DNA from: Candidatus Micrarchaeota archaeon
Lineage (GTDB): Archaea; Micrarchaeota; Micrarchaeia; Micrarchaeales; CABMGC01
NCBI GenBank assembly: GCA_028867115.1
Contig: JAGWGY010000001.1
Span: 8,380 to 72,379, forward strand
Length of the DNA stretch: 64,000 nt
Direction of reading: 5' to 3'
Within the stretch, counting starts at the first letter, position 1; every line of letters starts with the position of its first letter. Under the pieces are notes generated by a model. The model saw only the letters and a program-made list of their open reading frames with translations, did not search any database and was not told where the DNA came from. This document shows, piece after piece, positions 14,905-60,797 of the stretch. The translations under genes were made by a program, and so were the position numbers.

Positions 14905-15942
14905 GTGCTTGCCCTTAAAGTGAACAAGAAACAAGCCGAGAAGGCGCGCCACTACTTGGAGGTGCACGCTCAGCTATCCACTAAACACAAGATATATGGT
15001 GACAATTCATTTATATACCTACCTATAGGGCCCTCGGCTGATGACAAAACCGCCAGAGCCGCTGCGAAAAAGCTTGGGGCAAGCCTTGTCGAAAAGGGGT
15101 TTGAAAAGCTGCGGGAGAGGAGCGCATACAGGCAGATCCTTGCAAAGGAGCTTGGCGAGAAGTACGCGGAGGTCACCAAGAGCTATGATCTCATCGGCAA
15201 TATCGCCCTGATAGACGCAGAGGGCAGCGCTGCAAAGAAGATTGCAAGCGCGATCATGCAAACAAACAGGAACATACAGACCGTGATCAGCAAGGGTGGC
15301 GCGGTCAAGGGAAGGTACAGGACAAGGAGCTATAGGCACGTTGCCGGAAAGAGGAATTTCGTTGCAACTTACAAGGAGAACGGAGCCGTGCTAAAGTTTG
15401 ACATACGCAAAACATTCTTCTCATCAAGGCTTGCGTACGACAGGCTGAGGATAGCAAAGCTCGTCAAGGACAATGAGAACGTCCTGGTGATGTTTGCGGG
15501 GATGGGTCCATTTGCAATCGAGATAGGGATCATGCACAAGGGTGCGAATGTTGTGGGTATTGAACTCAACAGAAGCGCGTACGGGTACATGAGGCAGAAC
15601 ATAATCCTGAACCGCCTAAAGAACGTTACGGCGGAAGTTGGCGACGTCAAAAAGGCAGTTGCGAAGTACAGGGGGTTTGCGGACAGGATAGTCATGCCGC
15701 TTCCGAAAGACGCATATGATTTCCTTGGTTCGGCGCTCACCGCGGCAAAAAGGAGGTGCATAATACACTACTATGGGTTCGGTGGGAAGGACAGCGCATA
15801 TTCAGAGCACGAACAGAAGGTAAGGAGGTTCTTCGAATCGAAGGGGGTGAAGGTGAAGGTAATTGGGAGGAGGGAGGTGAGGAAGTATTCCCCCGCAGAA
15901 ATCGAGGTAGTGATAGACTTCCAAATATCAAAGCCGCGCTGA
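14905..15942 (+). CDS. trm5: tRNA (guanine37-N1)-methyltransferase Trm5/Taw22-like
   Basis: 345 aa, GTG start; class I SAM fold VLVMFAGMGPFAIEIG, IELNRSAY, DRIVMPLP. Confidence 0.7.
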   Translation: MLALKVNKKQAEKARHYLEVHAQLSTKHKIYGDNSFIYLPIGPSADDKTARAAAKKLGASLVEKGFEKLRERSAYRQILAKELGEKYAEVTKSYDLIGNIALIDAEGSAAKKIASAIMQTNRNIQTVISKGGAVKGRYRTRSYRHVAGKRNFVATYKENGAVLKFDIRKTFFSSRLAYDRLRIAKLVKDNENVLVMFAGMGPFAIEIGIMHKGANVVGIELNRSAYGYMRQNIILNRLKNVTAEVGDVKKAVAKYRGFADRIVMPLPKDAYDFLGSALTAAKRRCIIHYYGFGGKDSAYSEHEQKVRRFFESKGVKVKVIGRREVRKYSPAEIEVVIDFQISKPR

Positions 15943-26522: not shown

Positions 26523-28148
26523 TCACTTCAATCCTTGGATTGCCACGGCATATGCGCTCCAGGCATCACTCCCACCAGTGGTGGGTTCTACGGATGATGC
26601 GCTATATTTGCAGGTGCCGGTAAGCCCGGGACAGTACCATATTACGGTCTTTGGTATGTTTGCGCTAACTTGCTTTGCTGAAACGATATTATACGAAACA
26701 TAAAGTATGTTTCCCGTAGTAACTGTTCCTGTTATCTTTGAATACCCTGAGGGGAAGGTCATCTTATCGGTGTAGTGGGATGGGGATGTCACTGCTATCA
26801 GGATGTCGTTTGCATGGTTTGTGTTGTAATATGCGTAGGCGTTGAAGGAGTGTGCGCTTGCGGACATCGAGAGGGTATTTGGGATTAGGGAATTAAGATC
26901 AAAGGGGGTCACGGTGTTTTCCCCAGACCAGGTCGATACTGATACCTGGTAGTAGATGAGCCCGCTCAGCGGCCCGTATGTGACAATAATGTTGTCGCTT
27001 GTAAGCTTGTTCGGCACTATCGCGTAATAGACTCCAGGGGGATATACGCTACTGCTGTACTGTGTAAATGATAGAAGACCCTGAGAGTCGGTAACTGATT
27101 CCAATGGCTCCCCTGTATATTGCATCATGACAAGGACAAGTTCCTGCGAATATGCAGTAGTAATGCCGGTGAATTTCACGACGTTTGTTGAGGGGTTTGT
27201 CGGAGGAATGCAGCATGCGAGGCCAGAGTCCGCATACTGGTCCAGTGCAAGTGGCGCTGTTGTTGAGGTTGTGGAGGTTGAGGTGCTTGTTGTAGATGAA
27301 GTGGTGGAGGTTGAGGTGGAAGTAGTTGATGTTGTGGTTGTTGAGGTTGAAGTGGAAGTGGTAGTTGAAGTTGTTGTTGTAGAATAGAATGTCGCAATGA
27401 GATTACCCGGGGATATGGTGTTCATTACGGTGTTTTGTGATGTTGTAGATATGACGCTAACACCACCCTGGGTGCTCCAGCTGGAGAAGAAGTACGAGCT
27501 CGGTGGAAGTGCATAGATCGTGTAAGGGCTCTGGTAGAGAAGGATTATCTGCGTATTCGAGGGGTATGCCACCCCATCCACAACAATCTGACCAGGAACA
27601 GGGTTTGTCTGCAGATTTACCTTAAGTATCGGGTTTGCAACTTGAGGAGAGATGCCCATTGAAGCAAACCCTGTTGTATTTATTGTGTTTGCGGAGGATA
27701 TTGGAAATACGCAACTGGGTTTCTGGCATACCTGATAGTTGAGAAGGAATTTTGGGCTTATCTGCGTCCCTGGAGAAGCTATTGATTTTGAGATTGTAAC
27801 ATTGCAAGTTACGACGGCGCCCTTGACCGCATTGTAGGGAAGGCAGATGCCATTGTAAGTCTGCCCGGAGAAGGTCGGATTCACCACTATCCCGTTTATA
27901 TTAGGGAAGCTTATCTGGGTGCCAAGGTTGTTTATGAATATAACGATGAACCTTGAAGATGCGGAGTTTGACATGAATACGGACGTTACGCATGGGAAAC
28001 TAGGCGAGATGTAGCAGCTTGAAGGGGTAAACCCTGATGGATTGCGGACGGTGACAACAGCGAGTATGAAGGCCAAAAAGACTGCGATTGCAAGGAAGGC
28101 CCAGGAGTAGGTGAGCAGGAACTCTATAGACGACTGGAGTTTACCCAT
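26523..28148 (-). CDS. large secreted protein with class III (type IV pilin-like, QxSxE) signal peptide and Thr/Ser linker, paralog A
   Basis: 541 aa; N-terminus MGKL-QSSIEFLLTYSWAFLAIAVFLAF; about 40-residue T/S run; many N-x-S/T sequons. Confidence 0.7.
   Translation of the reverse strand: MGKLQSSIEFLLTYSWAFLAIAVFLAFILAVVTVRNPSGFTPSSCYISPSFPCVTSVFMSNSASSRFIVIFINNLGTQISFPNINGIVVNPTFSGQTYNGICLPYNAVKGAVVTCNVTISKSIASPGTQISPKFLLNYQVCQKPSCVFPISSANTINTTGFASMGISPQVANPILKVNLQTNPVPGQIVVDGVAYPSNTQIILLYQSPYTIYALPPSSYFFSSWSTQGGVSVISTTSQNTVMNTISPGNLIATFYSTTTTSTTTSTSTSTTTTSTTSTSTSTTSSTTSTSTSTTSTTAPLALDQYADSGLACCIPPTNPSTNVVKFTGITTAYSQELVLVMMQYTGEPLESVTDSQGLLSFTQYSSSVYPPGVYYAIVPNKLTSDNIIVTYGPLSGLIYYQVSVSTWSGENTVTPFDLNSLIPNTLSMSASAHSFNAYAYYNTNHANDILIAVTSPSHYTDKMTFPSGYSKITGTVTTGNILYVSYNIVSAKQVSANIPKTVIWYCPGLTGTCKYSASSVEPTTGGSDAWSAYAVAIQGLK
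27258..27381 (-). repeat. low-complexity poly-Thr/Ser coding repeat (linker of paralog A)
   Basis: Plus strand reads GTTGAGGTTGTGGAGGTTGAGGTG...; translates on minus strand as STTTTSTTTSTSTSTTTTSTTSTSTSTTSSTTSTSTSTTSTT. Confidence 0.85.
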
Positions 28149-28253: not shown

Positions 28254-29888
28254 CTATGGAAAACCTTGGATTGCAACTGCAAAATCAACCCACCCGTCGC
28301 TACCCCCTGCTGTTGGCTCTTGTGATGTTGGTACGTATTTGCAGGTCTTGTCCTTGTAGCTAGGGCAGTAGAACACAAGGGTCTTTGGGGTGTTTGCGCT
28401 TGCTTGGATTGCACTGACAACATTATATGAGACATATAGTATGTTGCCTGTTGAGACGCTGCCTGTTATCTTGGTGTATCCGCTTGGAAACTTGAAGTTG
28501 TCCCATAGGTGGCTGGGAGTTATAGCGGATATGAGAATGTCATTGGCATTGCTAGTTGTGTAGTATGCAAACGCATTAAAGGAACGTGATGTTGCGGCCA
28601 TACTCATTGTGTTTGGTATCTTTGAGTTTGTGTCGAATGGAGTCACGGTATTCTCGCCAGACCAGAGCGAGAGCGATACCTGGTCATCTATGAGCCCTGA
28701 GAGCGGACCGTATGTTACAGATACCTGGTCGTTTGTAAGAGTTCCTGGGACTATGGCGTAATATACTGTCGGATCAACAGATGTGCCATACTGTGAGAAC
28801 GTGAGCTGGCCCTGAGAGTCTGTGACGGACTCTATGGGCTCCCCTGCCTGGTCTGACATGACCAGCACCAGCTCGTCGCTGTAAGTGGTTGTAATCCCTG
28901 TGAAAGTGACCACGTTTGTTGACGGGTTGGTTGGCGGGCTGCAGCACGCAAGCCCTGAATCCCCATACTTGTCAAGCCCAAGTGGCGCTGTGGTTGTGGA
29001 GGTTGAGGAAGTCGTGGAGGAGGTTGTTGACGTGCTTGTAGTGGAAGTTGTCGAAGTTGAAGTTAAGGAGGTTGTGGTGGAGGAGGTTGATGTGGAAGTA
29101 ATGGTGGATGTCGTAGTCGTGGAGTAGAATACTGCAATGATGTTCCCAGGGGATATTGCGTTCACAATCGCGTTCTGGGTTGTTGCAGGTGATACGCTGA
29201 CGCCGCCTGTCGTCGCCCAGCTGGAGAAGAAGTATGAGCTTGGAGGGAGAGCATACACTGTGTAGGGATACCCGTACAGGAGGTGGACCAACACGTTTGA
29301 GGGGTATACTACGCTGTTAAGCACTATCTCCCCTCCGACCGGCAGGGTCTGCAGTCCCGCTAGTACGATCGCGTTGGGCACCATCGGGGATACTTCCATC
29401 GTGGAAAAGCCCGACGTGTAGAGAAGGTTTTGAGGTACAATCGGGAAGTCGCACCCGTCGCTATGGCACAACTCGTAGTTTAGCGTGAATTTCGGACTTA
29501 TCTGCGCCCCCACAGATGCGAGTTGCTTTGGCGCAGTGACGTTGCAGGTTACAACAGAGCCTATAGGCGCATTGTAGGGCAGGCAGACCCCGTTATAAAT
29601 CAGGCCCGAGAACGTGGGGTTCATCGTTATGCCGTTCGATTCGGGGAAGCTTATCGCCCTTCCCAGATTGTTTTTGAAGATTAGGATGAAAGCGGATGCT
29701 GCAGTGTTTGTCATGAATACCGAAGTTCTGCACAAAAGCCTTGTGTTTATGTAGCAGCTTCCTGGAGTCAGGCTTGCAGGATTTCTCACCGTTACCACGG
29801 CGAGTAGGAATGCGAGAAATACGGCAATCGCTAGAAAGGCCCAGGAGTAGGTGAGCAGGAACTCTATAGACGACTGGAGCTTACGCAT
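28254..29888 (-). CDS. large secreted protein with class III signal peptide and Thr/Ser linker, paralog B
   Basis: 544 aa; MRKL-QSSIEFLLTYSWAFLAIAVFLAF; collinear with paralog A; 44-nt identical stretch over the signal peptide (28096-28139 = 29836-29879). Confidence 0.7.
   Translation of the reverse strand: MRKLQSSIEFLLTYSWAFLAIAVFLAFLLAVVTVRNPASLTPGSCYINTRLLCRTSVFMTNTAASAFILIFKNNLGRAISFPESNGITMNPTFSGLIYNGVCLPYNAPIGSVVTCNVTAPKQLASVGAQISPKFTLNYELCHSDGCDFPIVPQNLLYTSGFSTMEVSPMVPNAIVLAGLQTLPVGGEIVLNSVVYPSNVLVHLLYGYPYTVYALPPSSYFFSSWATTGGVSVSPATTQNAIVNAISPGNIIAVFYSTTTTSTITSTSTSSTTTSLTSTSTTSTTSTSTTSSTTSSTSTTTAPLGLDKYGDSGLACCSPPTNPSTNVVTFTGITTTYSDELVLVMSDQAGEPIESVTDSQGQLTFSQYGTSVDPTVYYAIVPGTLTNDQVSVTYGPLSGLIDDQVSLSLWSGENTVTPFDTNSKIPNTMSMAATSRSFNAFAYYTTSNANDILISAITPSHLWDNFKFPSGYTKITGSVSTGNILYVSYNVVSAIQASANTPKTLVFYCPSYKDKTCKYVPTSQEPTAGGSDGWVDFAVAIQGFP
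28989..29123 (-). repeat. low-complexity poly-Thr/Ser coding repeat (linker of paralog B)
   Basis: Translates as STTTTSTITSTSTSSTTTSLTSTSTTSTTSTSTTSSTTSSTSTTT. Confidence 0.85.
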
Positions 29889-29999
29889 TGATAGCCCTAC
29901 ATATTTAATCCTTTTATTACTTTATCAACACCAGACAAATTAGTAATTGCCCCTATCTGCATATGGCCAGGTATGGGCGTGGTTTACCTGAGTGAATTC

Positions 30000-30806
30000 A
30001 TGATAGGGATTATTTATTCCGCAGATGACCCAGCCTCTGCAAACGCCGCAGGGCAATTGAAGGAGACTCACGATTTTAGTGAGTCAAGAATTTCTGGAAG
30101 AACGTGCTGGAAAAACGGGGATATTGTCCTCTGGGAAGCGGACTCAAGACTTATCGATGCCAAATCCGTTGACACGATGGGGTTTGAGGTAGCATACTTT
30201 CTTAGCAAGCACAAGAGTGCAAACGGGGTCGGCGCATTTACTACGCACCCTCTTGGGAACTGGACAGCAGAGGCTGCGATAGGAGGGACACCAAGAGAGC
30301 TCTCTATAGCCGCGCCTGCAGAGATGCTCTGCGTTCTCGCTGCAATCGCGCGCATAGATGCGGTTGGGATTGAGAGGACATATGAGGCAACCCATCACGG
30401 TCCGCTTCTCAATACCCCCTCACTCTTTGTTGAGCTTGGAGGAAATGACGCTGCAATCGGCAACGTCCAACTAGCACACAAGCTTGCGGATGCGGTTTTT
30501 TCGGCGCTTTCTGGAAAACAGGATCTTCAGGATAAAGTTGTGATTGGAATCGGGGGAACGCACTACCCTGTAAAGTTTACCAAGCTCGCGCTTGAGAAGG
30601 GTTATGCGTTTGCGCATATAATGCCAAAACACGCCATACTCAATCATGATGGGAGCGACAATCTAGGGATGCTTTCGCAGGCAGTTGAGCGATCAAAAGC
30701 GCCACCTGAAGCTGCGGTGATAGATTGGAAAAGTATAAATGCGGAGACAAGGAATAAGGTGCTAAAGGAGCTATCCGCAATTGGTATTGACTATGAGAGG
30801 GTTTGA
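30000..30806 (+). CDS. dtdA: D-aminoacyl-tRNA deacylase, archaeal DTD2 type
   Basis: FTTHPLGNW, YEATHHGP, IGIGGTHY, VIDWKS; start at MIGIIYS (ORF track starts 29973). Confidence 0.8.
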   Translation: MIGIIYSADDPASANAAGQLKETHDFSESRISGRTCWKNGDIVLWEADSRLIDAKSVDTMGFEVAYFLSKHKSANGVGAFTTHPLGNWTAEAAIGGTPRELSIAAPAEMLCVLAAIARIDAVGIERTYEATHHGPLLNTPSLFVELGGNDAAIGNVQLAHKLADAVFSALSGKQDLQDKVVIGIGGTHYPVKFTKLALEKGYAFAHIMPKHAILNHDGSDNLGMLSQAVERSKAPPEAAVIDWKSINAETRNKVLKELSAIGIDYERV

Positions 30807-33375: not shown

Positions 33376-33687
33376 CTATTTGTAAAAGACGTGGGTCTCT
33401 GCTCCGCATTCGCACTTATAGGCCACGTAACCTTTTGAGCTTGCAAGCCGGACTGTGCAGTTGAGGCCGGTGACAAAAACGTTGCCGCACTTTTTACATA
33501 TCCTTTCCCTGATATCATTAGGCATCCTGACCTTGTAGTGGGTGCTTATCTTATTGGCTATTTTGACATACCTTTTTGCAAGCCTCCTAGAATCGCTATC
33601 TCCCTTTTTCGTTCTCTGCTGCGCTAGCTCAAAGAGCCTGTGTATCCTGTCCAGCGCAACCTCATTGACAAAAGAGTCCTTTTGCAT
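33376..33687 (-). CDS. rnp4: RNase P protein component 4 (Rpp21)
   Basis: 103 aa; helical N-half (RIHRLFELAQ...AKRYVKIA) plus zinc ribbon CKKC...CECG. Confidence 0.8.
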   Translation of the reverse strand: MQKDSFVNEVALDRIHRLFELAQQRTKKGDSDSRRLAKRYVKIANKISTHYKVRMPNDIRERICKKCGNVFVTGLNCTVRLASSKGYVAYKCECGAETHVFYK

Positions 33688-36520: not shown

Positions 36521-36609
36521 TGGGCCCAAGGGGATTTGAACCCCTGACATCTGGCTTTCTTACGGATTGATATAAGACCAGCGCTCTAACCAGGCTGAGC
36601 TATGAGCCC
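36521..36609 (-). tRNA. tRNA-Ile (anticodon UAU) with 14-nt intron at 37/38
   Basis: Minus strand GGGCTCA-TA-GCTC-AGCCTGGTTA-GAGC-G-CTGGT-CTTATA[TCAATCCGTAAGAA]A-GCCAG-ATGTC-AGGGG-TTCAAAT-CCCCT-TGGGCCC-A; 4-bp CTTA/TAAG helix flanked by 3-nt bulges (relaxed BHB); no encoded CCA. Confidence 0.8.
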
Positions 36610-36673
36610 CCAAAGTACACTATTATATTCGTTAACATTTTAATATTAATACTACTTTTGCGCGTTGGTTGCG

Positions 36674-37978
36674 ATGGATCTAGGAGAGGGTTTGAGGAAG
36701 GCGATCGCAAGGCTGAGCGGCGCCACAATCATAGATTCGAAGAGCATCAGGGAGTTCAACAAGGAGCTGCAGAAAGCGCTGCTCGGCAGCGATGTTGAGG
36801 TCAAGCTCGTCCTTGCCCTAACTAAAAAGATAGAGGAGGCTGCGCTAAAGTCCGACCTGCCCGAGGGAGTAACGCCAAGGGACTACATCACGAACCTCGT
36901 GTATGAGGAGCTCGTGAAGCTGATGGGCAAGAAGTATGAGCCTGTTCTCGAACCGAAGAGGATACTGCTCCTCGGGCTTTACGGCTCCGGTAAGACGACC
37001 ACGTCAGCAAAGCTCGCGAAGTTCTACCAGGACAGGGGCCTCAGCAGCGCTCTTGTGTGCTGCGACGTATCAAGGCCGGCCGCCTACGAGCAGCTGGAGA
37101 CTCTCGCAAAGCAGGCCGGAGTAGGGTTCTTCGGCATAAAAAACGAGAACAGTGTGCGCAGGATCGTGAAGGGCGCGGTTAGCGCGCTAAAGGACAAGAA
37201 AGTGGTGATATTCGACTCAAGCGGCAGGAACGCGCTTGACGCCCAGCTGATAGAGGAGCTCAAGGAGATAAACTCCGAGGCGGATCCGAAGGAGAAGATA
37301 CTCGTCATAAGCGCAGACATAGGGCAGGTCGCTGGCAAGCAGGCAAAGGAGTTCGATGAGGCAGTGAGGCTCACCGGGGTAATTGTCACAAAGCTGGACG
37401 GCTCGGGTAAGGGCGGAGGGGCGCTCAGCGCAGTGAACGCTGCAAATGTCAATATAACATTCATAGGCACCGGGGAGAAACTTGGGAACATAGAGCTGTA
37501 CGACTCGAAGAAGTTTGTCGGGAGGCTGCTTGGGATTCCTGACATAGAGTCGCTGATATCACACGTGCAGCAGGCGGTCAAGGAAGCGAACATCAATCCG
37601 GAGGAGATGGCGATGACAGAGCTCAACTTCGAGAGCTTCTATGCGCAGCTAAAGGCGATGTCGAAGATGGGGCCAATAAAGAACATGCTCGGCATGTTCG
37701 GGGTTGTGGACGCGCCAAAGGAGATGCTTGAGCAGAGCGAGGTCAAGATGAAGCGGTACAAGTCGATAATAGGCTCTATGACCGCCGAGGAGCGAAAGGA
37801 CGAGAGGCTGATGCACAATTCCGATAGGATAAAGCGGGTTGCTGTTGGCAGCGGCACGAGCGAGAAGGACGTTAGGGAGCTGCTCAAGGATTTTGGCAAG
37901 ATGAAGAAGATGGTCGGCGCGCTTCAGAACGACCGCGACATGAAGAGGAAATTGGCAAAATTCATGCCAAAGATGTGA
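36674..37978 (+). CDS. srp54: signal recognition particle protein SRP54
   Basis: GLYGSGKTTTSAKLA, DVSRPAA, TKLDGSGKGGGALS, Met-rich M domain. Confidence 0.9.
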   Translation: MDLGEGLRKAIARLSGATIIDSKSIREFNKELQKALLGSDVEVKLVLALTKKIEEAALKSDLPEGVTPRDYITNLVYEELVKLMGKKYEPVLEPKRILLLGLYGSGKTTTSAKLAKFYQDRGLSSALVCCDVSRPAAYEQLETLAKQAGVGFFGIKNENSVRRIVKGAVSALKDKKVVIFDSSGRNALDAQLIEELKEINSEADPKEKILVISADIGQVAGKQAKEFDEAVRLTGVIVTKLDGSGKGGGALSAVNAANVNITFIGTGEKLGNIELYDSKKFVGRLLGIPDIESLISHVQQAVKEANINPEEMAMTELNFESFYAQLKAMSKMGPIKNMLGMFGVVDAPKEMLEQSEVKMKRYKSIIGSMTAEERKDERLMHNSDRIKRVAVGSGTSEKDVRELLKDFGKMKKMVGALQNDRDMKRKLAKFMPKM

Positions 37979-48880: not shown

Positions 48881-48908
48881 TTGCCCTACGTATCTCTTAT
48901 GTTCGCTT

Positions 48909-48980
48909 GGGCTCCTGGCGCAACGGTAGCGCGCCTGCATGGCATGCAGGAGGTTGCGGGTTCGAATCCCGCGGAGTCCA
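48909..48980 (+). tRNA. tRNA-Ala (anticodon GGC)
   Basis: GGGCTCC-TG-GCGC-AACGGTA-GCGC-G-CCTGC-ATGGCAT-GCAGG-AGGTT-GCGGG-TTCGAAT-CCCGC-GGAGTCC-A; G3:U70 Ala identity pair; 3' end plus trailer (CGCGGAGTCCAGAC, 48970-48983) is the core of three downstream repeats. Confidence 0.9.
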
Positions 48981-48987
48981 GACCTTT

Positions 48988-49596
48988 TTATTTGGTGAAA
49001 TTTATTGATAGCGTTGCAACTCTAGTAAGGTATGCCTCCCAGGAATCTAAAATTGACGAATTGTAAGCTAAAGTCCCATCTAAATTATTTACAATTATAT
49101 TAGATACTTTACTAGATCCGTCAATCTCTACAACGCCCCTACCAGCTATTGAAAAAACCGACATTGGCACGTAGGGACCTAAGGCGTTCAGTTTTGGCAG
49201 CGGAGGTGCGGGTGAGAATGTGGTATTTATTGGTTGCTTGACAACCCAAGGATAACCGGACTGTGATTCTAAATTTGATAGTTGTACAAATTGTTGAAAA
49301 TATGACCTTGCATCATTATCGTCTGTAAATGCCCTATAGTATACACTTATGTCATCAGGTATTGAATCATTAGAATTTATTCTCATAAGCTGCTGGGTGC
49401 AATAAAAGATTTGCCCGGCGTTTGTTGATGTATTAGTGCAATAGGGATTTATCGAAGCCGAATAATTACCATTAATTATCCCGATTTTTGATAAATCAGG
49501 CAAAGGTCGAGGATGATAACTTAAAAAATTAAAGTAGAAAAGTACTGAAATAATTATTATTGCAATAAGCAAAAATACGATAAGTTTTGGATTCAC
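48988..49596 (-). CDS. membrane-anchored hypothetical protein (AT-rich module)
   Basis: 202 aa; N-terminal TM IVFLLIAIIIISVLFYF; N/S/I-rich composition; a 60-nt line in this gene (49081-49140) has about 30% G+C by my count. Confidence 0.5.
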   Translation of the reverse strand: MNPKLIVFLLIAIIIISVLFYFNFLSYHPRPLPDLSKIGIINGNYSASINPYCTNTSTNAGQIFYCTQQLMRINSNDSIPDDISVYYRAFTDDNDARSYFQQFVQLSNLESQSGYPWVVKQPINTTFSPAPPLPKLNALGPYVPMSVFSIAGRGVVEIDGSSKVSNIIVNNLDGTLAYNSSILDSWEAYLTRVATLSINFTK

Positions 49597-49655
49597 ATCA
49601 TCAACTAAATTTTGCGTTTGAATATATAAACCTATAAACTATTATATAAAACACC

Positions 49656-50234
49656 ATGTCAACAAAAACATTCAGATACATCGTTTCCATTTTTAGTATA
49701 TTCATTGGATTATTCTTCGTGCAATCTTCGCCAAATTACAATGTTCTGATTTTTATTTTGGGTATTTTGCTAATAATTGGCGGCGTGATAGTCTCTTTGG
49801 GAACGAGCAATAAACTTGGTGGCTGGCTAGTTATCATTGGGGGGATAATATATTTGTTGGGAAAAGGGCCTGGCATCTTTAGCTCGTTTCCATATTGGCT
49901 CTCAGTCTACGGGCAACCAAATTTATTGTACATGTTTTATAATTTTGGTCAATTAATAGCACCATTCGTCATTGGTGTATTGGTACTCTGGAAAAAATCC
50001 GCAGCGTTTAGGATACTTGGGGGCAGTCTATCTATATTGCTCTTTATCTGGTTAAATATATTCTATAATGGGTTTAGTCCTGGTTGTAAAGCGCCAGATG
50101 TTATGGTGTGGCTGCTAAATTGCTTCTCCGTATATTATGCGTGGGTTTTATTTTTACTCGGGGGTATTGTGATTATTTTGGCAGCTTGTAAACCCATTTT
50201 TAAGCTATTTACTACTAAATACTATCAAAAATAA
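49656..50234 (+). CDS. polytopic membrane protein (AT-rich module)
   Basis: 192 aa, about 6 hydrophobic helices; stop codon lies inside repeat R1 left arm. Confidence 0.5.
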   Translation: MSTKTFRYIVSIFSIFIGLFFVQSSPNYNVLIFILGILLIIGGVIVSLGTSNKLGGWLVIIGGIIYLLGKGPGIFSSFPYWLSVYGQPNLLYMFYNFGQLIAPFVIGVLVLWKKSAAFRILGGSLSILLFIWLNIFYNGFSPGCKAPDVMVWLLNCFSVYYAWVLFLLGGIVIILAACKPIFKLFTTKYYQK

Positions 50235-50280
50235 CCCCAACCCGACGTGGGAAGTTCGCGGAGTCCAGACTTTCTATTTA
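50221..50280 (+). repeat. tRNA-Ala 3'-end-derived direct repeat R1 (att-like)
   Basis: ACTATCAAAAATAACCCCAACCCGACGTGGGAAGTT-CGCGGAGTCCAGAC-TTTCTATTTA; core 50257-50270 identical to 48970-48983. Confidence 0.8.
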
Positions 50281-52478
50281 ACTGTTGACATTTCAGCCAA
50301 CCTACTAAGCAATTGCTGCACATCCTTCGTGCCGTGGAGGTTGAACCGCGCATACGACTGTGCCATCCCTACCCTTATAGAATATGCGCTTTTCGGCAGT
50401 GACTTGAACGTATCCTCGTCAGTATAATCATCGCCTATCGCAAGAATGAAATCGGGGCTGTGCAAATTTATGAAATGCGCCGCTGCTACGCCCTTGTTGA
50501 CGCCTGAGTTCTTAACCTCGATTATCTTGTTCCCCTTACACACCTGTACATCCGCGTTTGCGGTAATCTTACTGAGATTGTCAAAAAGTTCTGAGACTCT
50601 GAGTGATGCAAATTCCGATTCAGACTTTCTATAGTGCCATACAATAGAGAATTCCTTCTCTTCTACAAACGACCCTGGCAGCCTACCTGCGTAGTCGTTT
50701 ATTATGGGCATTATCATCGGCTTCCATTCTGCCGTCAGCGGTCTAATGAGGCGCCAGTCTGCGCCGCGTTCTTTTATAAAAACTCCGTGCTCGGCAACCA
50801 ATGAAACGCCGATTCCCGAAAACCATTTGTCTAGCGTAGCCTTGTCCCTCCCGCTGGTCACAACGACCTCGTTTTTAGGGTCGCTGCACAGTGACCTTAG
50901 CATGTCAAGGGTCTGCTTTGTGGGCGACGCTTTCCTAGGTTCCTCTGTGAATGGGACCATCGTTCCATCGTAATCCAGCAGCAGGAGTGCCTTCCCGGCC
51001 TTCCCATGGTCGGACAGCAAGGCGGCTTCATTGCCGCCAAGAAGCTTTGCATTGAAGACTTCCTGCATCTCCTTAAGCTTTGCAAGCTCCTTCATGAAAT
51101 CATTCCCCCATCTTACTATGTCATATGACCTCACCCTCTCCTGCATCGCAATCATTCGGCGCATCTGCTCCTCTATGGGCATGGTGAGCGCCGTTTCCAG
51201 CGCATTGCATATCTCGCCGGGGTGGTTTGGGTTGACCATCACCGCTTCCCCGAGTTCTTTGGATGCTCCGGCCATCTCGCTGAGCACGAGAACGCCGGGG
51301 GATTCTAGCTTGCTTGCAACATATTCTTTTGCGATAAGGTTCATGCCGTCACGCAAAGGCGTCACCAATGCCACATCTGCCATATTAAATAGAGCGGAAA
51401 GGGTGCTCGAATCGAGGAACCTATACTGATATGTGATAGGTGCCCAGTCGATTGCACCGAACCTGCCGTTTATTCTCCCTACCTTCTCATCGATCGCCAT
51501 CTTCAGCTTCTTGTATTCCCTGACTCCCTCCCTTGATGGCACGACCACTAGTACAAGGCGGACCCTTCCCCGCATCTGCGGGTGCCTCTCCAAGAAAAGA
51601 TCATAGCCGTTTAGCCTGTTCAGGATTCCCTTTGTGTAATCCAGCCTGTCTATCGAGAAGATTATCTTCGCATCACCTATGCTCTTTTTGAGTTTGTCCT
51701 TCTCCTTTGCGACAGAATCGCTCCTGGAGAGCGCCTGCAAATTGCCGAAATCTATGCCCATTGGGAATGCATCAACCCTCTTTAGCTCGGAGTCCGGCCC
51801 CTCTATGTATCCAAGATTGCTGTCATATCCTAGCAACCTTGAGACGCTAGTCACAAAATCCTGCATGTAATCGTACGTGTGGAACCCTATCAGGTCTGCG
51901 CCCAAAAGCCTCGACAGCAGAGCCCTGCCCCATCCGCCCGGCAGGAGCCTGAAGACTTCATAAGACGGGAACGGTATATGCAGGAAGAATCCTATCCTTG
52001 CTTGCGGCCTGCGCCCCTTTAGCATGGCGGGCAGCAGCATCAGGTGGTAGTCGTGGATCCAGACAATGTCGCCAGGCTGCACGATGCCGGCCACTTCCTC
52101 GCAAAACCGCTCGTTAACCTTGCGGTAGGCTTCCCATTCGTCATCGTCGTAATTGGCGTACTCTGTAAAGTAATGGAAGAGTGGCTGCAGGGTGCTGTTG
52201 CAAAAGCCGTTGTAGAAGCCCTCATAGTCCTTTTCGGCAAGGAAGACCGGGGAACATTTGGACTTGCCTGCCATCCTCCTTATGTCCTTCCTGTCGCTAT
52301 CGTCATCAAATACCCCGCCCGGCCACCCCACCCAGAGGTAATCATCGATTTTTGCAGCCTTGAGATAGGATTTTATTCCACTTGCAAGCCCTCCAGCCGC
52401 TTCGGAAACGGCGATCTTCCCATCAGGGCCCTTTGTGAAAGATAGCGGCAGCCTGTTGGACACTATTATGTACCTCAT
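50274..52478 (-). CDS. bifunctional trehalose-6-phosphate synthase/phosphatase (OtsA-OtsB fusion)
   Basis: GT20 motifs [39 protein letters not shown]; C-terminal [12 protein letters not shown] ... [10 protein letters not shown]; ATG 52478 preferred (GTG 52487 in ORF track). Confidence 0.9.
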
Positions 52479-52500
52479 CCATGCCACCGTCGCACTTTTC

Positions 52501-52524
52501 CTGAGCCAGAACTATCTGGCTCAG
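52501..52524. other. perfect 10-bp inverted repeat (hairpin) between the DUF1059 stop and the ots start
   Basis: CTGAGCCAGA-ACTA-TCTGGCTCAG; overlaps the stop codon at 52521-52523; 22 nt upstream of the ots ATG on the minus strand. Confidence 0.7.
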
Positions 52525-52694
52525 GCGTCCTTTATTGCAGCGCTGACTTTTGCCTTAGTGGCATCATCAAGCTGCGCCATGTTGTGGGCGACCCTGGCAT
52601 GGTCTGCGATCTTCGGCATCAGCTCCTCCACAGTTGCCCCCTCTGCCGTAAAATCACATGCAAAACCTATGTCCCTGCACACAAACTTCTTCAT
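52521..52694 (-). CDS. DUF1059-like small protein
   Basis: 57-aa ORF below the ORF-track cutoff, hand-translated: MKKFVCRDIGFACDFTAEGATVEELMPKIADHARVAHNMAQLDDATKAKVSAAIKDA; matches the DUF1059 pattern (F-x-C-x-D-x-G-x-x-C-x-F ... H-A-x-x-x-H). Confidence 0.6.
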   Translation of the reverse strand: MKKFVCRDIGFACDFTAEGATVEELMPKIADHARVAHNMAQLDDATKAKVSAAIKDA

Positions 52695-52760
52695 GACAAT
52701 CGTAAGGCTTGGCGAATCGGACGTATATATCGCTTTTCGATCTGGGACAGAATTGCGCGC

Positions 52761-53174
52761 TCAGCCGAGCAGCATGTCTCGCATCTTGAGCAGCGCCAGG
52801 TACACCTGGCCGTCGTTGCGGAGCCTCTCTATGCTCTTGTAACCGAGGTGGATCCCGCTGATGGAGGAGAAAAGCGTGAGCATATATGACATCCCCCTGT
52901 TGCTCATGCCCATAAGCTGCTGCACCAGGAGTATTATCAGCTTCTGCTCAAGGTCCAGGCTCGGCTTCCTGCCCCTTCCCAAACTTGGCCTAACCGATAT
53001 CGATGCGTCACGTATTGTTGGCATGAGTATCCTAATGGTCTTCTTTATCTGGCTTGACCTTTTCTGCCTATAAGTCCTCCAGTCGCTTATTGCATACCTC
53101 GGAAGCACCCGCTCCCTGACTATGGACTCTATCTCGCATAGCAGCGCGTTGATGCCTATCAGAGCTTCTTCCAT
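52761..53174 (-). mobile_element. IS-type transposase N-terminal (HTH) fragment, catalytic domain absent
   Basis: 137 aa; GRGRKPSLDLEQKLIILLVQQLMGMSNRGMSYML resembles the HTH region preceding DDE domains in IS4/IS5-like transposases; ORF stops after it. Confidence 0.4.
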
Positions 53175-53269
53175 GGTTCCTATGCGCTAGGAAAAATTAA
53201 ATTAGTTATGTCCAAATGCGCGGCAAGCAATGCATAAACTTTTATGATTTTGGCTGGATAATAGAATCG

Positions 53270-54187
53270 ATGCAGATGCCTGCTCAAAAGCCAAACCCCC
53301 ACATCGGGTACTTCGTTCTATTCCTAGTCGCGCTCGCACTGGGCATATCCCTAGCGCTGCTCTCCGGCAAGGTGCTTGCGGGGGTGGGCATAACCTCGCC
53401 TCAGTATCTGGAGTATGCTGATATCCTCATAACCGTGGCGTTCGGCTATGCCGCGCTCAAGCTGCTCTCAGATTCGATAATCGAGTATGGGAAGAGGAGG
53501 CCGCGGATAGACGAGAGGCTGCTAGCAAAAGTCGTGCGCATCATAGGGTATGTGATAATAGTGCTGTTGGTGATGTCGATCTTTAGGATAGACCTGACCG
53601 GGGTGCTGATAAGCGCGGGCTTTTTGGGCATAGTGATAGGTCTTGCTGCTCAGTCCACATTGGGCAACCTCTTTGCAGGCATCTCGATGATGGCCGCAAA
53701 GCCGTTTGCCAACGGGGACAGGGTAACTTTCTCCTCATGGCAGTACGGCGCGCTGCCCCCATCCTACGCACACAGGTTCCTCAGGCTTGGCTTTTCAGGC
53801 ATCATAGAGGAGATAGACCTTATGTATACGAGGCTGAGGCAGGATGACGGCACAGTGCTGTATGTGCCAAACGGCGTGATGAATGGCGCGGCAATAATAA
53901 ACTACTCGGTATCTGATGTCATAGACGTGAATTTCAGGCTTGAGCTCCCTCTGGAGGCCGACTTTGCGTCTTTTAGGTCAAAAGTGCTCAAGGAGATTGA
54001 CAGGCACAGCAGGCTTCACAAGGCCATAAAGGGAAAGCCCGAAGTCATAATAACCGACATAGCCTCACAGATGTACGGGGTGGATGTGATAGCTAGAAGC
54101 GAGATACGCAGCGAAGCGTACGTAAAATCCGAAATAGCTGCTATCGTGCTGCGCATAGCCTCAAAAACCATGGAGGGGGGAAAATAG
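53270..54187 (+). CDS. mscS: small-conductance mechanosensitive channel (MscS family)
   Basis: Three TM helices then LGNLFAGISMMAAKPFANGDRVTF; start at ATG 53270 (ORF track 53216). Confidence 0.8.
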   Translation: MQMPAQKPNPHIGYFVLFLVALALGISLALLSGKVLAGVGITSPQYLEYADILITVAFGYAALKLLSDSIIEYGKRRPRIDERLLAKVVRIIGYVIIVLLVMSIFRIDLTGVLISAGFLGIVIGLAAQSTLGNLFAGISMMAAKPFANGDRVTFSSWQYGALPPSYAHRFLRLGFSGIIEEIDLMYTRLRQDDGTVLYVPNGVMNGAAIINYSVSDVIDVNFRLELPLEADFASFRSKVLKEIDRHSRLHKAIKGKPEVIITDIASQMYGVDVIARSEIRSEAYVKSEIAAIVLRIASKTMEGGK

Positions 54188-54204
54188 GGAATACGAACAG
54201 CATT

Positions 54205-54272
54205 TACTATCAAATGATATCAAAAATAACCCCAACCTGACGTGAGAGGTCCGCGGAGTCCAGACCTTTTTA
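54205..54272 (+). repeat. tRNA-Ala 3'-end-derived direct repeat R2 (att-like)
   Basis: TACTATCAAATGATATCAAAAATAACCCCAACCTGACGTGAGAGGTC-CGCGGAGTCCAGAC-CTTTTTTAA; core 54252-54265. Confidence 0.8.
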
Positions 54273-54318
54273 ACCCAAAAGCTTAAAATATCATAACTGA
54301 CGTAATATTAGTGACTAA

Positions 54319-54528
54319 ATGGGCAGAAAATACACGATAATCATAACCAAGGGAGAAGTCGCATATGTCGCTTATTGTGAGGAGCTCGGAATAGCGAGCC
54401 AGGGAAAGAGCGTAAAGGAGGCAAGGAAGAACATAAAGGAGGCAATAGAACTATACACTGAAGAGGCAAAAGACTCGAAGCTCGCTAAGTCAGCTTTGCC
54501 CATAGTGACAACGATAAGCGTGGGATGA
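54319..54528 (+). CDS. hicB: HicB-like antitoxin (UPF0150 fold)
   Basis: 69 aa; YTIIITKGEVAYVAYCEELGIASQGKSVKEARKNIKEAIELY. Confidence 0.65.
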   Translation: MGRKYTIIITKGEVAYVAYCEELGIASQGKSVKEARKNIKEAIELYTEEAKDSKLAKSALPIVTTISVG

Positions 54529-54532
54529 TGAG

Positions 54533-54760
54533 ATGGGCAAACTTCCCATCGTTTCGGCGCTAGATGTTGTAAAGGTGCTCAGAAAGAACGGCTTTAGCAT
54601 ATCAAGGCAGAGGGGAAGCCACATAATACTTATAAAATTTGTTGATGACAAGAAACGGATAGTTGTCGTCCCTAACCACAGGCAGATTGACCCTGGTACA
54701 CTGCTTTCCATAATAGCCCAATCTGGCATGCTAAAAGACGAATTCCTTGATTCTTTGTGA
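54533..54760 (+). CDS. hicA: HicA-family mRNA-interferase toxin
   Basis: 75 aa; VVKVLRKNGFSISRQRGSHIIL...VVVPNHRQIDPGTLLSIIAQSGM. Confidence 0.75.
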   Translation: MGKLPIVSALDVVKVLRKNGFSISRQRGSHIILIKFVDDKKRIVVVPNHRQIDPGTLLSIIAQSGMLKDEFLDSL

Positions 54761-54773
54761 GGATGATAACATT

Positions 54774-54832
54774 CACTACCAAAAATAACCCAAACCTGAC
54801 GTGGGAGGTTCGCGGAGTCCAGACCTTTTTAT
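54774..54832 (+). repeat. tRNA-Ala 3'-end-derived direct repeat R3 (att-like)
   Basis: CACTACCAAAAATAACCCAAACCTGACGTGGGAGGTT-CGCGGAGTCCAGAC-CTTTTTAT; core 54811-54824. Confidence 0.8.
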
Positions 54833-54865
54833 GATTTTGAGTTCTAGGGGGGAAATAATCAGACT

Positions 54866-55087
54866 TTAATTACAGTTTGAGCGAGTTGGTGAGGAGAATT
54901 TTGGATAGCTATAATTGAACAGTACAACATTGTGAAAATTACATTCTAGTTCTTGTGTTGTCAAAAACACCGCGTAAGCATATGCCGTTTGAATACCATA
55001 AATGTATTTGGTCATAATATAATTTGAGTAGATTCCAGATATTACGAGCACCAATGATACTGCCAAAAATATCCCGTAAGCAGACAT
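54866..55087 (-). CDS. small membrane protein, last gene of pilus operon
   Basis: 73 aa; N-terminal hydrophobic helix; abuts the upstream gene. Confidence 0.4.
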   Translation of the reverse strand: MSAYGIFLAVSLVLVISGIYSNYIMTKYIYGIQTAYAYAVFLTTQELECNFHNVVLFNYSYPKFSSPTRSNCN

Positions 55088-55471
55088 TCAATCACCAACT
55101 TCAATGCAGAGCGTGCTATTCCTTTTGCCATAATAAATACATGTTTGTACCAAAGGTGAGTTGACATAGCCTAAGCTAATATTAGGTGCCTTTGCTGCAA
55201 TATTTACTTTGTATAATTTGTTATATATCAGAAATAAGTTGCTTAAACATGTAGAATTACTTGATGATAGGTTCTCAACACATAACTTCGTAGAGCCATT
55301 AAAATCTAGCTGATTGATAAGATCATATATGGCAAAGTTGCTTATCAATGCACTCTTCTGTGTAAAGAGGGTTAAAGTTGCAGAGTTCATGGCATTGGTA
55401 GTATAAGTAATAGCAAAAATTGCCAGCAAGATAGAGGTAACTGATTCGGCCACTGCAAATTGCGCCTTCAT
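55088..55471 (-). CDS. pilin-like protein (degenerate class III signal)
   Basis: 127 aa; MKA-QFAVAESVTSILLAIFAITY. Confidence 0.5.
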   Translation of the reverse strand: MKAQFAVAESVTSILLAIFAITYTTNAMNSATLTLFTQKSALISNFAIYDLINQLDFNGSTKLCVENLSSSNSTCLSNLFLIYNKLYKVNIAAKAPNISLGYVNSPLVQTCIYYGKRNSTLCIEVGD

Positions 55472-56737
55472 TTAAGCACCTTTTACGTTAATATAGGATC
55501 CAAGGTATTGAAGAGTCATATTTTCTATGCTAAGCCCATTAAAAGATGCATTTATGATGTATGAGAAAGGATATTGTGAGTAGCAAGTATAATTCTCTAT
55601 GTTGAAGGTACAGCCTTTGCCTAGAATTCCTGAGCTATTGAGCAGCTTATTTACTGTATTAATGTAGCTAAATCCCATGGATTCCAAAGCAGATGCGATA
55701 TCTGGCGAGACTTCTGATCCATTGTACGCACTAAGTTGGGAATATAGGGAGTTCTTATCGGATAGGTATGCCTGATAATTTGAGGAATTTACGGGTGAGA
55801 TCCCTTTGGGACCATCGAGGAAGTTTTGGTTTATTTGTTGTGCAATACCGCTCGCATTCTCTACTGACGCATTTCCTACATCCAGATTGTTTAATGTAAG
55901 CCTGCTGGATTTATTGTTCGAGATATTAGAGCGGATAGTAAAATTTTCTGAGGCTAATTTCAAAGTGAAGTTATAATGCAACGAGGCGCCTGCTTGCCCA
56001 GCGGACATATCCTGGTAGCCACTATCTACAGGGATAAAGCAGTAGGTTTCGGTATAGTAGCTACTTGTTTGGTAACAAACGTCTGAGAATACTGATACCG
56101 ACCACTCTCCACCAGAACCGCACTGTTGTCGTGTAGGCCCCCACCCATTTGCATAGGTACAGTGGGAGAATACCTGCATTTGAATTATGTTGCCGGCATC
56201 TAATAGTGGATATACGTATGACTCGTTTCTATTTAGTATAGTCGCTGTTAGCTGATTAGTCTGCAGTTGTATACCTTGTTTAGTTCCATAGGTGGAATAT
56301 GTAGTGTTTATTGTTCTTCTAATGTTATTGCACGTGGTCGTCGAATTTACGCTTATTTGGTTATACCCCATATTAAGAGGAGTAAAATAGATATCAAAAA
56401 CCTCAATGCCGCTTAAGGTGGAATTTAGCGAATCTTGTGAAAAAAGTACAGATTTAGAGATAAAATTTAGTCTTATTGACCCATTACACCCATATGCAAC
56501 GAGCCGCATTATGTTTGGGTTATCAAGAACTGCGCTCTGTGGTACAAAAACCCTTACCTCCATATTCTGCGGGTAAATAATTTGTGGACCGTATGTAGAT
56601 GCGTTAAAAGAACTAAAATTATTGAACTTAGATTGGTTAGAATGGATCGTTTGGCTGTAAGATGAGACCATTATAACAATCAGTACACTTATCGTGCTTG
56701 CAGCAAGTAGGAACTCTACACTAGCCTGCATTTTCAT
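55472..56737 (-). CDS. large pilin-like protein (class III signal plus about 390-aa N/S/T-rich domain)
   Basis: 421 aa; MKM-QASVEFLLAASTISVLIVIMV. Confidence 0.6.
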   Translation of the reverse strand: MKMQASVEFLLAASTISVLIVIMVSSYSQTIHSNQSKFNNFSSFNASTYGPQIIYPQNMEVRVFVPQSAVLDNPNIMRLVAYGCNGSIRLNFISKSVLFSQDSLNSTLSGIEVFDIYFTPLNMGYNQISVNSTTTCNNIRRTINTTYSTYGTKQGIQLQTNQLTATILNRNESYVYPLLDAGNIIQMQVFSHCTYANGWGPTRQQCGSGGEWSVSVFSDVCYQTSSYYTETYCFIPVDSGYQDMSAGQAGASLHYNFTLKLASENFTIRSNISNNKSSRLTLNNLDVGNASVENASGIAQQINQNFLDGPKGISPVNSSNYQAYLSDKNSLYSQLSAYNGSEVSPDIASALESMGFSYINTVNKLLNSSGILGKGCTFNIENYTCYSQYPFSYIINASFNGLSIENMTLQYLGSYINVKGA

Positions 56738-57101
56738 GACTTAACACCAGGATTATGCTCTTTCCATTTAGAGTGACTATTCGGCAAACCCCCATAGTTT
56801 CACAGCCAGCTGGAGAAGAGTTGGAAAGCTGTAGGATTTGCGATTGTATCAGGTTTTCTGAGGAGTAATTACTAATGAAAGAAATTAATCCAGAATTATT
56901 TTCTGGATAACTATCGATAACAGAAGCGATTATCTGCGAGATAGTGTAGAGCTTGAGCTGCATCACACTGTTTGTGGAAAGAGAGGATAACGAGAGCGTT
57001 TGCATATGCCAGGTGTAAAGTAATAGAAGCACTGCTGTCGAGACTATTGGCAAAGAGATAGTAAGATCTAGTGAAATGAGTGCACCAATAATTTTTGACA
57101 T
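56721..57101 (-). CDS. minor pilin-like protein
   Basis: 126 aa; MSKIIGA-LISLDLTISLPIVSTAVLLLL. Confidence 0.45.
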   Translation of the reverse strand: MSKIIGALISLDLTISLPIVSTAVLLLLYTWHMQTLSLSSLSTNSVMQLKLYTISQIIASVIDSYPENNSGLISFISNYSSENLIQSQILQLSNSSPAGCETMGVCRIVTLNGKSIILVLSHENAG

Positions 57102-57310
57102 GAAATCAACCTTAAATCAACTACACAACTGGCACACGAGGCGGCCAATTCTTCGGTATATGTAGCAGCGCTACAGGACGCATTCTTTTCAATCCCAATA
57201 ACTTTAGTTGCTCCAAAGTGGAGTTTTGAGAGCAGCAACAGCGAGGATAATGCAAATAACATAACTATTGACATACCTACAATAACCTCTAAACTAATCT
57301 GAGCTCGCAT
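57068..57310 (-). CDS. type IV pilin-like protein (QxSxE)
   Basis: 80 aa; MRA-QISLEVIVGMSIVMLFALSSLLLL. Confidence 0.6.
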   Translation of the reverse strand: MRAQISLEVIVGMSIVMLFALSSLLLLSKLHFGATKVIGIEKNASCSAATYTEELAASCASCVVDLRLISCQKLLVHSFH

Positions 57311-57693
57311 TACGACACCCTGTTTAGTATGTAATATTCTCCCTTGTAGGAAATGCTTAGGACCGATCCCCCTCCATCAGGACAAAATACCCCCTTAGGG
57401 ATAGAAATGCCATCTGCAATGCTTAGATTTCCATAAATTGTGGAAAGGACGCCAGATTTCACGTATGCACTGCACATCCCGCTTGGGAGATATGCCGAGA
57501 ACTCCTGGTAGGCTACTCCTGTGAGTGCTGCAGAGTTTAATTTAGAGACCATGGATGAGACCTGGTATTCACTGAGCAGGTAGGTGACGTGCACCATCCC
57601 AACACGTAGCGTGTTTGCAATGAACAGCAGTGATACGCCCGAGAGGGAGATGTAAGCAAGTACCTCAAGTGAGAGCTGCGCCCTCATCATCAC
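57310..57693 (-). CDS. type IV pilin-like protein (QxSxE)
   Basis: 127 aa; MMMRA-QLSLEVLAYISLSGVSLLFI. Confidence 0.6.
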   Translation of the reverse strand: MMMRAQLSLEVLAYISLSGVSLLFIANTLRVGMVHVTYLLSEYQVSSMVSKLNSAALTGVAYQEFSAYLPSGMCSAYVKSGVLSTIYGNLSIADGISIPKGVFCPDGGGSVLSISYKGEYYILNRVS

Positions 57694-57944
57694 TACACCA
57701 CATTAGATGAAAGCGAGGATAGCTCATGGGATATTGCACCGGATATGCTCATGTTGCTCCCATTTACCATTATATTTGAAGTCGCGGCACCTTTCAGCTT
57801 CACCACCATGGCCAAGGCTATCGCTATTACAAGACTAGCCGCTGCAAGCATCATTATGTACTCCAATGATCCTTGCCCCTTCTTTGACCTCGCCACTGCG
57901 AGCAACGCTTTTGCTTCCAAAAGGAATCTTATTCTATTTTCCAT
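57693..57944 (-). CDS. small type IV pilin (candidate major pilin)
   Basis: 83 aa from internal ATG 57944: MENRIRFLLEAKALLAVARSKKG-QGSLEYIMMLAAASLVIAIALAMVV; the longer ORF-track form overlaps the upstream gene. Confidence 0.6.
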   Translation of the reverse strand: MENRIRFLLEAKALLAVARSKKGQGSLEYIMMLAAASLVIAIALAMVVKLKGAATSNIMVNGSNMSISGAISHELSSLSSNVV

Positions 57945-57952
57945 TTTCCCAC

Positions 57953-60766: not shown

Positions 60767-60785
60767 TTACTATAACACCATTTTG

Positions 60786-60797
60786 ATTATTTAAGTA
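60786..60797 (-). promoter_or_regulatory. TATA-like element for the pilus operon
   Basis: Minus strand ACTTAAATAAT ends about 20 nt upstream of the ATPase ATG (60766); extremely A/T-rich 150-nt region. Confidence 0.4.

Follow-up and report, generated by a model that had tools for sequence, protein, structure and literature searches.

An intron-containing tRNA-Ile(UAU) gene as the likely dedicated AUA decoder of a Micrarchaeota archaeon

The stretch of 64 kb of Micrarchaeota DNA that was analyzed in this work (the window) carries what is, with a probability of about 0.88, a functional intron-containing tRNA-Ile(UAU) gene, most likely the dedicated AUA decoder of this Micrarchaeota (DPANN) archaeon. 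The evidence comes from the structure of the gene, from its comparison with orthologues located beside the same neighboring gene in other species, and from the use of AUA codons in the window.

Location, structure and conservation of the tRNA gene

The tRNA gene spans exactly positions 36521-36609, and the same coordinates were returned by the Rfam tRNA model and by ARAGORN. An initial annotation of this DNA had placed a tRNA at these positions; the coordinates were correct, and the strand, which had not been given, was found to be the minus strand. Alignment to RF00005, whose gathering score is 29 bits, gave a score of 59.8 bits (E = 2e-10) over model positions 1-71 of 71. The parts of the gene and its surroundings are listed below (BHB, bulge-helix-bulge).

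36521..36609, minus strand: complete pre-tRNA-Ile(UAU), 89 nt (RF00005, ARAGORN coordinates and sequence)
36571..36609, minus strand: 5' exon, tRNA positions 1-37 (sequence, with the parse anchored on stem complementarity)
36573-36576, minus strand: C32-A35, partner of the intron UAAG in the predicted central BHB helix
36572..36574, minus strand: anticodon U34-A35-U36, predicted to read the AUA codon (RF00005 alignment; same in 37/37 orthologues)
36557..36570, minus strand: intron UCAAUCCGUAAGAA, 14 nt, between A37 and A38 (limits set by the intron-less orthologues, which read CUUAUA-AGCC)
36559..36562, minus strand: intron nucleotides 9-12 (UAAG), 3' strand of the 4-bp central BHB helix (register test)
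36521..36556, minus strand: 3' exon, positions 38-73 (sequence, with covariation in the T, anticodon and acceptor stems)
36636..36652, minus strand: putative promoter, A/T-rich box ATTAATATTAAAATG, approximately 27-43 nt upstream of the tRNA +1
36674..37978, plus strand: SRP54 gene, divergent neighbor that anchors the synteny and lies outside the tRNA gene (Pfam SRP54_N/SRP54/SRP_SPB)

The 5' half of the precursor reads GGGCUCA UA GCUC AGCCUGGUUA GAGC G CUGGU CUUAUA and is followed by the intron, after which the 3' half reads A GCCAG AUGUC AGGGG UUCAAAU CCCCU UGGGCCC A. The 5' exon therefore contains the acceptor strand GGGCUCA, the D arm, the anticodon stem strand CUGGU and C32, U33, U34, A35, U36 and A37, and the 3' exon contains A38, GCCAG, a variable loop of 5 nt (AUGUC), the T arm AGGGG-UUCAAAU-CCCCU, the acceptor strand UGGGCCC and the discriminator A73. 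The CCA end is absent from the gene, where A73 is followed by TTC. U8, A14, G18-G19, U33 and the UUCAAAU T-loop are all present, and folding prediction gave a cloverleaf for the spliced tRNA. The canonical cloverleaf drawn in the initial annotation was thus borne out by the Rfam score, by standard pairing at all of the 21 stem pairs and by covariation among the orthologues.

These orthologues were obtained from 80 related loci, taken from a species-level genome collection by means of the adjacent SRP54 gene. Nearly all of the loci are labelled Micrarchaeota, Micrarchaeia, Micrarchaeales or Micrarchaeaceae, and a few bear other labels (Marsarchaeota, Acidoferrum, "bacterium" or "archaeon"). The same tRNA was found directly upstream of SRP54, in divergent orientation, in 36 other Micrarchaeota species; a search with nhmmer and a nearly full-length tRNA profile recovered the copy of locus L006 and truncated copies in L023 and L032. 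The closest species representatives in GTDB, labelled Micrarchaeota or Micrarchaeales, share 81-83% SRP54 identity with the window, and an identical SRP54 and tRNA pair is present on contig JAGWFY010000019.1 of the MAG GCA_028867695.1. Among 26 distinct orthologue sequences, 1 of 546 cells was non-standard over the 21 cloverleaf pairs, compensatory (double-sided) changes were observed at 7 of these pairs, and the anticodon loop was invariant across the aligned orthologues. As judged from these sequences, the finding that at least 37 Micrarchaeota species keep tRNA-Ile(UAU) beside SRP54, with an unvarying anticodon, would be the new, if modest, observation of this work.

The A/T-rich box upstream of the gene sits in the intergenic region common to the tRNA and the divergent SRP54 gene. 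A box of this kind is present approximately 20-45 nt upstream of nearly all of the orthologues. In the 37 orthologous upstream regions the A+T content was 0.75-0.85 at positions -45 to -20 and approximately 0.55 further out, and a AAGGTTAAAAT-type motif recurs upstream of tRNA-Ile(UAU) in many relatives. The box may be regarded as a putative archaeal TATA/BRE promoter.

Some other features of these loci were recorded. The tRNA of L006 (8859-8957, minus strand, with an intron of 29 nt) has the T-loop UCCAAAU, with a C at the near-universal U55 (pseudouridine 55) site, which is either a true variant or an assembly error. In more distant Micrarchaeota, tRNA-like matches were detected downstream of SRP54 (L057, 16299-16386; L048/L049, approximately 13235-13290; L059, 13207-13262; L075, 13199-13255), which ARAGORN misses or calls '???'; these are probably other intron-containing tRNAs. 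A tRNA-Arg(TCT) lies at a similar place, several kb downstream of SRP54, in neighboring species.

The window also encodes other functions related to tRNA, none of them specific to tRNA-Ile(UAU): a Trm5/TYW2-family methyltransferase (15256-15942, plus strand), a D-aminoacyl-tRNA deacylase (29973-30806, plus strand; Pfam tRNA_deacylase) and the RNase P protein Rpr2 (33376-33687, minus strand). A stand-alone 5S rRNA gene was found at 11554-11667 (plus strand; Rfam 65.3 bits) and neither 16S nor 23S rRNA genes were found in the 64 kb, so that the rRNA genes are unlinked. Two tandem paralogous ORFs (26523-28148 and 28254-29888, both on the minus strand) encode proteins of 541 and 544 aa that share 66% identity and match no Pfam family. 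The N-terminus of both proteins is hydrophobic (M-x-KLQSSIEFLLTYSWAFLAIAVFLAF) and similar to the type IV pilin-like (class III) signals of archaea; behind it comes a linker of approximately 55 residues made of Ser and Thr only. They are probably surface or pilin-like proteins, and could bear on the attachment of DPANN archaea to their hosts. Finally, the GC content falls from approximately 0.53 to 0.35 right after a tRNA-Ala(GGC) gene (48908-48981), opening a low-GC stretch (49000-61000), and between 54 and 61 kb it remains at 0.37-0.46. Among the genes of this region are those of a trehalose-6-P synthase/phosphatase fusion, an MscS channel and a T2SSE/type IV ATPase, together with several ORFs that match no family. 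This stretch may be DNA acquired beside tRNA-Ala; no att-like repeat of the 3' end of tRNA-Ala was found in the window.

The intron and its bulge-helix-bulge motif

The precursor was examined for a BHB motif, defined by a central helix of 4 bp, two bulges of 3 nt and splicing after the second nucleotide of each bulge. C32-U33-U34-A35 pairs with intron nucleotides 9-12 (UAAG) over 4 bp, with U36-A37^U and A-A^A38 bulging out on the 5' and 3' sides, respectively. The outer helix consists of a single C-G pair around a loop of 5 nt, which falls short of a strict hBHBh' motif; because of this single pair, the predicted BHB of the window gene is of the relaxed class (hBH/BHL). The minimum free energy fold of the precursor has a matching anticodon-arm architecture, in which the 5' bulge merges into the loop.

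Comparison with the relatives defined the intron further. In eight orthologues (L005, L007, L012, L015, L028, L037, L042, and L046) the gene lacks an intron and CUUAUAA is read directly. The other 29 genes, the window gene included, bear 28 distinct introns of 13-39 nt, all of them at 37/38. The sequence of these introns is unconstrained except for the last 6 nt, with the consensus U-A-R-G-A-A. C32-A35 paired over 3.64 bp on average with the four intron nucleotides that end 2 nt before the 3' splice site, and the same measure at other intron offsets ranged from 1.2 to 2.1 bp. At the canonical offset, pairing of at least 3 bp was observed in all of the 28 introns and pairing of 4 bp in 18, and none of 2000 intron shuffles equaled the observed pairing. 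This offset corresponds precisely to the BHB register predicted for cleavage after the second bulge nucleotide. The predicted product of ligation is the sequence of the intron-less orthologues, so that exact excision restoring the anticodon loop CUUAUAA is supported by the comparison. The intron of 14 nt at 37/38 and the relaxed BHB with a CTTA/TAAG helix of 4 bp and bulges of 3 nt, both proposed at the outset, agree with these boundaries, with the shared insertion site, with the register conserved in 28/28 introns and with the 1-bp outer helix.

The outer helix varies with the size of the intron. Introns of 27-39 nt in the relatives form outer helices of 7-10 bp and strict motifs; the window gene and its nearest relatives L002 and L003, with introns of 13-14 nt, have an outer helix of 1 bp and relaxed motifs. 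The exons of the intron-less gene of L005 (9094-9168) and of the gene of L003 (9847-9934, intron of 13 nt) are nearly identical, both tRNAs beginning with GGGUUCA and finishing with UGGACCCA, which points to a recent and precise loss or gain of the intron at 37/38. Across the Micrarchaeota, gain, loss and change of size of the intron have occurred freely at one fixed site.

Anticodon assignment, AUA usage and alternative readings

The use of AUA was counted in 48 non-overlapping ORFs of the window, comprising 15,793 codons. AUA accounts for 689 of the 1,211 Ile codons (57%), or 43.6 per 1000 codons, and is more frequent than AUG. The GC content of the window is approximately 50%, yet AUA is strongly preferred for Ile. 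The meaning of the codon was examined in codon alignments of SRP54 and DRG, with approximately 70-80 orthologues: columns with ATT or ATC in the window are ATA in 40-58% of the orthologues, and columns with ATG in the window are ATA in only 7.7%. By this comparison, AUA is isoleucine in this organism. The preference for AUA coincides with a genuine UAU-anticodon tRNA.

In the canonical archaeal route, the same task of reading AUA as Ile without reading AUG is performed by tRNA-Ile2(CAU), whose C34 is converted to agmatidine by TiaS (PDB 4RVZ/3AMT), whereas the window tRNA has U34. The components of this route were searched for with a TiaS probe from A. fulgidus, which matches PDB 4RVZ, 'tRNA(Ile2) 2-agmatinylcytidine synthetase TiaS', at 100% identity along 420 residues. 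No match was found by tblastn in the window and 81 related loci, which add up to 1.34 Mb and represent the same syntenic region; the best scores were at the level of noise (E = 4.4 for the whole set; E = 0.042 and 27 bits for the window alone). No CAU-anticodon tRNA was detected by ARAGORN in the window or in the related loci, again one syntenic region. The absence of TiaS and of this tRNA from the loci is weak evidence, since the loci sample one genomic neighborhood. No Pfam domains of TiaS, EndA or RtcB were found among 40 ORFs of the window and in the Pfam table of the identical contig, and no entries for TiaS, K06932, arCOG01115 or COG1571 were found in the supplementary tables of DPANN/Micrarchaeota genomics papers. 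The genome paper of ARM-1 makes no mention of tRNA introns. Absence of TiaS and tRNA-Ile2(CAU) from the genome as a whole is suggested by the literature on the ARMAN archaea.

Regarding the anticodon, ARAGORN gave outputs at odds with UAU. Its default mode called the window gene Tyr(ata), and its intron mode called it Ser(tga) with an intron at 34/35; both assignments were rejected on the comparative evidence. A reading in which the intron lies elsewhere and the anticodon is another one, namely Tyr(AUA), Ser(UGA) if the intron is at 34/35, or the suppressor UUA that ARAGORN called for L002 and L050, is favored by these outputs and by the fact that the 34/35 product also folds as a cloverleaf. 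The folding energy is identical for the 37/38 and 34/35 splice products (both -30.5 kcal/mol) and does not discriminate between them. The orthologues, by contrast, do: the eight intron-less genes, which carry CUUAUAA in full, were called Ile(tat) by ARAGORN itself, whereas its calls for intron-bearing relatives were Stop(tta), Tyr(ata) or '???'. Placing the intron at 37/38 gives UAU in 37 of 37 genes, and placing it at 34/35 gives a mixture of UGA (27 orthologues), UAU (8) and UGU (2). The BHB pairing exists in the 37/38 register only, and the RF00005 alignment sets UAU at positions 34-36, with the anticodon loop aligned as C-U-U-A-U-A, an insertion of 15 nt (the intron of 14 nt plus A38) and the 3' anticodon stem GCCAG. 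A tRNA-Ser has a long variable arm, and the variable loop of the window tRNA has 5 nt; archaeal tRNA-Tyr identity requires C1-G72, and the first pair of the window tRNA is G1-C72. The class I body with its short variable loop, A73, G1-C72, A37 and A38 agree with Ile and do not fit Ser or Tyr. Since the intron-less orthologues read CUUAUAA and the 37/38 placement alone gives a single anticodon in 37 genes, the isotype calls of ARAGORN are artefacts, and another anticodon is extremely improbable. Formally, these calls contradict the anticodon and intron site of the initial annotation; under the comparison, the spliced loop CUUAUAA with the anticodon UAU held, as it did in the Rfam alignment.

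The remaining alternatives accept the anticodon UAU and concern its role. A redundant isoacceptor, in which the genome would also encode TiaS and tRNA-Ile2(CAU), AUA would be read twice and tRNA-Ile(UAU) would be accessory, had been raised as the key caveat in the initial annotation, and 64 kb of this genome were examined. This arrangement is unlikely: ARMAN-2, -4, and -5 are reported to be without TiaS and without tRNA-Ile(CAU) (PMC3239211), the searches of the 1.34 Mb from one syntenic region found neither of them, 37 species have kept the gene with its anticodon unchanged, and the place of AUA as the majority Ile codon is what would be expected of a main decoder and not of a reserve. It is very unlikely that the gene is a decaying, non-functional pseudogene or a tRNA-like relic of an integrated element. 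Two features would fit decay, namely the near absence of the outer BHB helix and the fact that a standard tRNA finder misses or mislabels the gene; against it stand the perfect cloverleaf with all of the conserved residues given above, the position and orientation by SRP54 kept in 37 species with compensatory substitutions, and the very high demand for AUA decoding. A reassignment of AUA, such as the one to Met known from many mitochondria, with the tRNA carrying another amino acid, would have in its favor only the unusual abundance of the codon, and is made next to negligible by the distribution of AUA between the Ile and Met columns of SRP54 and DRG. The dedicated decoding of AUA by tRNA-Ile(UAU) is the most likely reading.

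Incorrect anticodons were given by ARAGORN for the window gene and for those of L002 (5328-5415), L050 (357-450), L026, L027, L029, and L040, and its '???' calls carry anticodons of 4 nt (tata, ataa). Such errors on tRNA-Ile(UAU) are an annotation hazard for DPANN MAGs, and some of the calls would suggest suppressor tRNAs.

Proposed maturation pathway and relation to known systems

From these data, a pathway can be proposed for the tRNA. Transcription would start from an archaeal A/T-rich promoter approximately 30-40 nt upstream, and the 5' leader would be removed by RNase P. The anticodon arm and the intron would fold as a relaxed BHB, C32-A35 pairing with UAAG, a structure based on the sequence and its comparison; in each of the bulges U36-A37-U and A-A-A38 the predicted splice site follows the second nucleotide. 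Both sites would be cut by an archaeal splicing endonuclease, presumably of the epsilon2 type with its broad specificity, by analogy with ARMAN-2. Since the outer helix has 1 bp, cleavage would need an endonuclease that tolerates relaxed motifs, and an EndA of this kind is assumed for this organism from ARMAN-2. The exons would be joined by an RtcB-type ligase and, because CCA is not encoded, this end would be added post-transcriptionally. The mature tRNA, with the loop CUUAUAA, would be charged by IleRS and would read AUA through U34:A pairing, in place of the usual route of tRNA-Ile2(CAU) and TiaS-made agmatidine.

The anticodon of eukaryotic tRNA-Ile(UAU) is pseudoU-A-pseudoU and its gene contains an intron, which in yeast guides the formation of pseudouridine 34/36. 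A U-type position 34 for AUA and an intron at 37/38 are also found in the window gene. The strategy of the ARMAN archaea for AUA was likened to the eukaryotic one by Fujishima et al. (PMC3239211). As the intron is missing from eight orthologues, a modification that strictly depends on it cannot be general in the phylum. In haloarchaea, U34 mutants of tRNA-Ile misread AUG, and the U34, modified to cnm5U, bound the codons in the order AUA > AUG > AUU (PMC3895270), so that some adaptation must exist in Micrarchaeota. By the account of PMC3575796 given in PMC3895270, the tRNA-Ile(UAU) of Mycoplasma mobile likewise uses U34 for AUA, this U34 being unmodified and causing no significant misreading. 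In Micrarchaeota, AUG could be avoided either with an unmodified U, the tRNA and the ribosome being adapted to each other as in M. mobile, or with a modified U or pseudouridine. AUA being the majority Ile codon with a U34 decoder, the misreading of AUG in haloarchaea also leads to a more speculative reading, which is doubtful at present: an undescribed fidelity mechanism, consisting of a new modification of U34/U36 or a co-adaptation of tRNA, IleRS and ribosome, with the intron guiding modification of the anticodon in some lineages, as in yeast. The latter idea comes from the coexistence, among the orthologues of this one gene, of 8 species lacking the intron and 29 with an intron of 13-39 nt. 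If so, the intron would be functional and not a passive passenger.

The closest known system is that of the ARMAN archaea, which include Micrarchaeota, the phylum of the window organism. A tRNA-Ile(UAU) was reported in ARMAN-2, -4, and -5 (Fujishima et al. 2011, NAR 39:9695; PMC3239211), and the pre-tRNA-Ile(UAU) of ARMAN-2 was cleaved in vitro by its epsilon2 endonuclease (PMC3239211; PMC12397907), an enzyme that also cuts relaxed motifs (PMC3239211). The same substrate was used in a 2025 paper on the structure of the ARMAN-2 endonuclease with RNA (PMC12397907). ARMAN-2 (Candidatus Micrarchaeum acidiphilum) has the phylum, the anticodon UAU and the intron site 37/38 in common with the window gene, and the same decoding logic, without TiaS and tRNA-Ile(CAU), is inferred for the window lineage. 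The ARMAN-2 precursor is also said to have been used again in a structural study by Hirata et al. in 2012. In comparison with its published description, in which the intron has 25 nt and a strict hBHBh' motif, the window intron has 14 nt and a relaxed hBH/BHL motif. The species are different, the nearest GTDB representatives of the window being at 83% SRP54 identity.

A genomic UAU anticodon for AUA is also found in Korarchaeum cryptofilum and Nanoarchaeum equitans, and the Korarchaeum gene carries an intron, as the window gene does (PMC6000648; PMC3895270); both organisms belong to other phyla than the window organism. The initial annotation had limited genomic tRNA-Ile(UAU) to a few lineages such as these, a view that is outdated since the 2011 report on the ARMAN archaea (PMC3239211). 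It can probably be traced to a 2018 survey of 167 archaeal genomes, in which tRNA-Ile(UAU) turned up in Korarchaeum and Nanoarchaeum alone and whose text contains neither "DPANN" nor "Micrarch-" (PMC6000648).

An orthologue of the window gene has already been described, and used biochemically, in the same phylum. UAU-decoding in ARMAN/Micrarchaeota has been known since 2011, and this picture is left unchanged. The descriptive novelty is modest and consists of the conservation linked to SRP54, the turnover of the intron, the dominance of AUA and the systematic mis-annotation by ARAGORN. The gene places this organism among the few archaeal lineages in which AUA is read by a true UAU anticodon and not through agmatidine. 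tRNA-Ile(UAU) is useful for annotation, given that ARAGORN labels it wrongly as Tyr, Ser or suppressor, and it also helps in assigning lineages.
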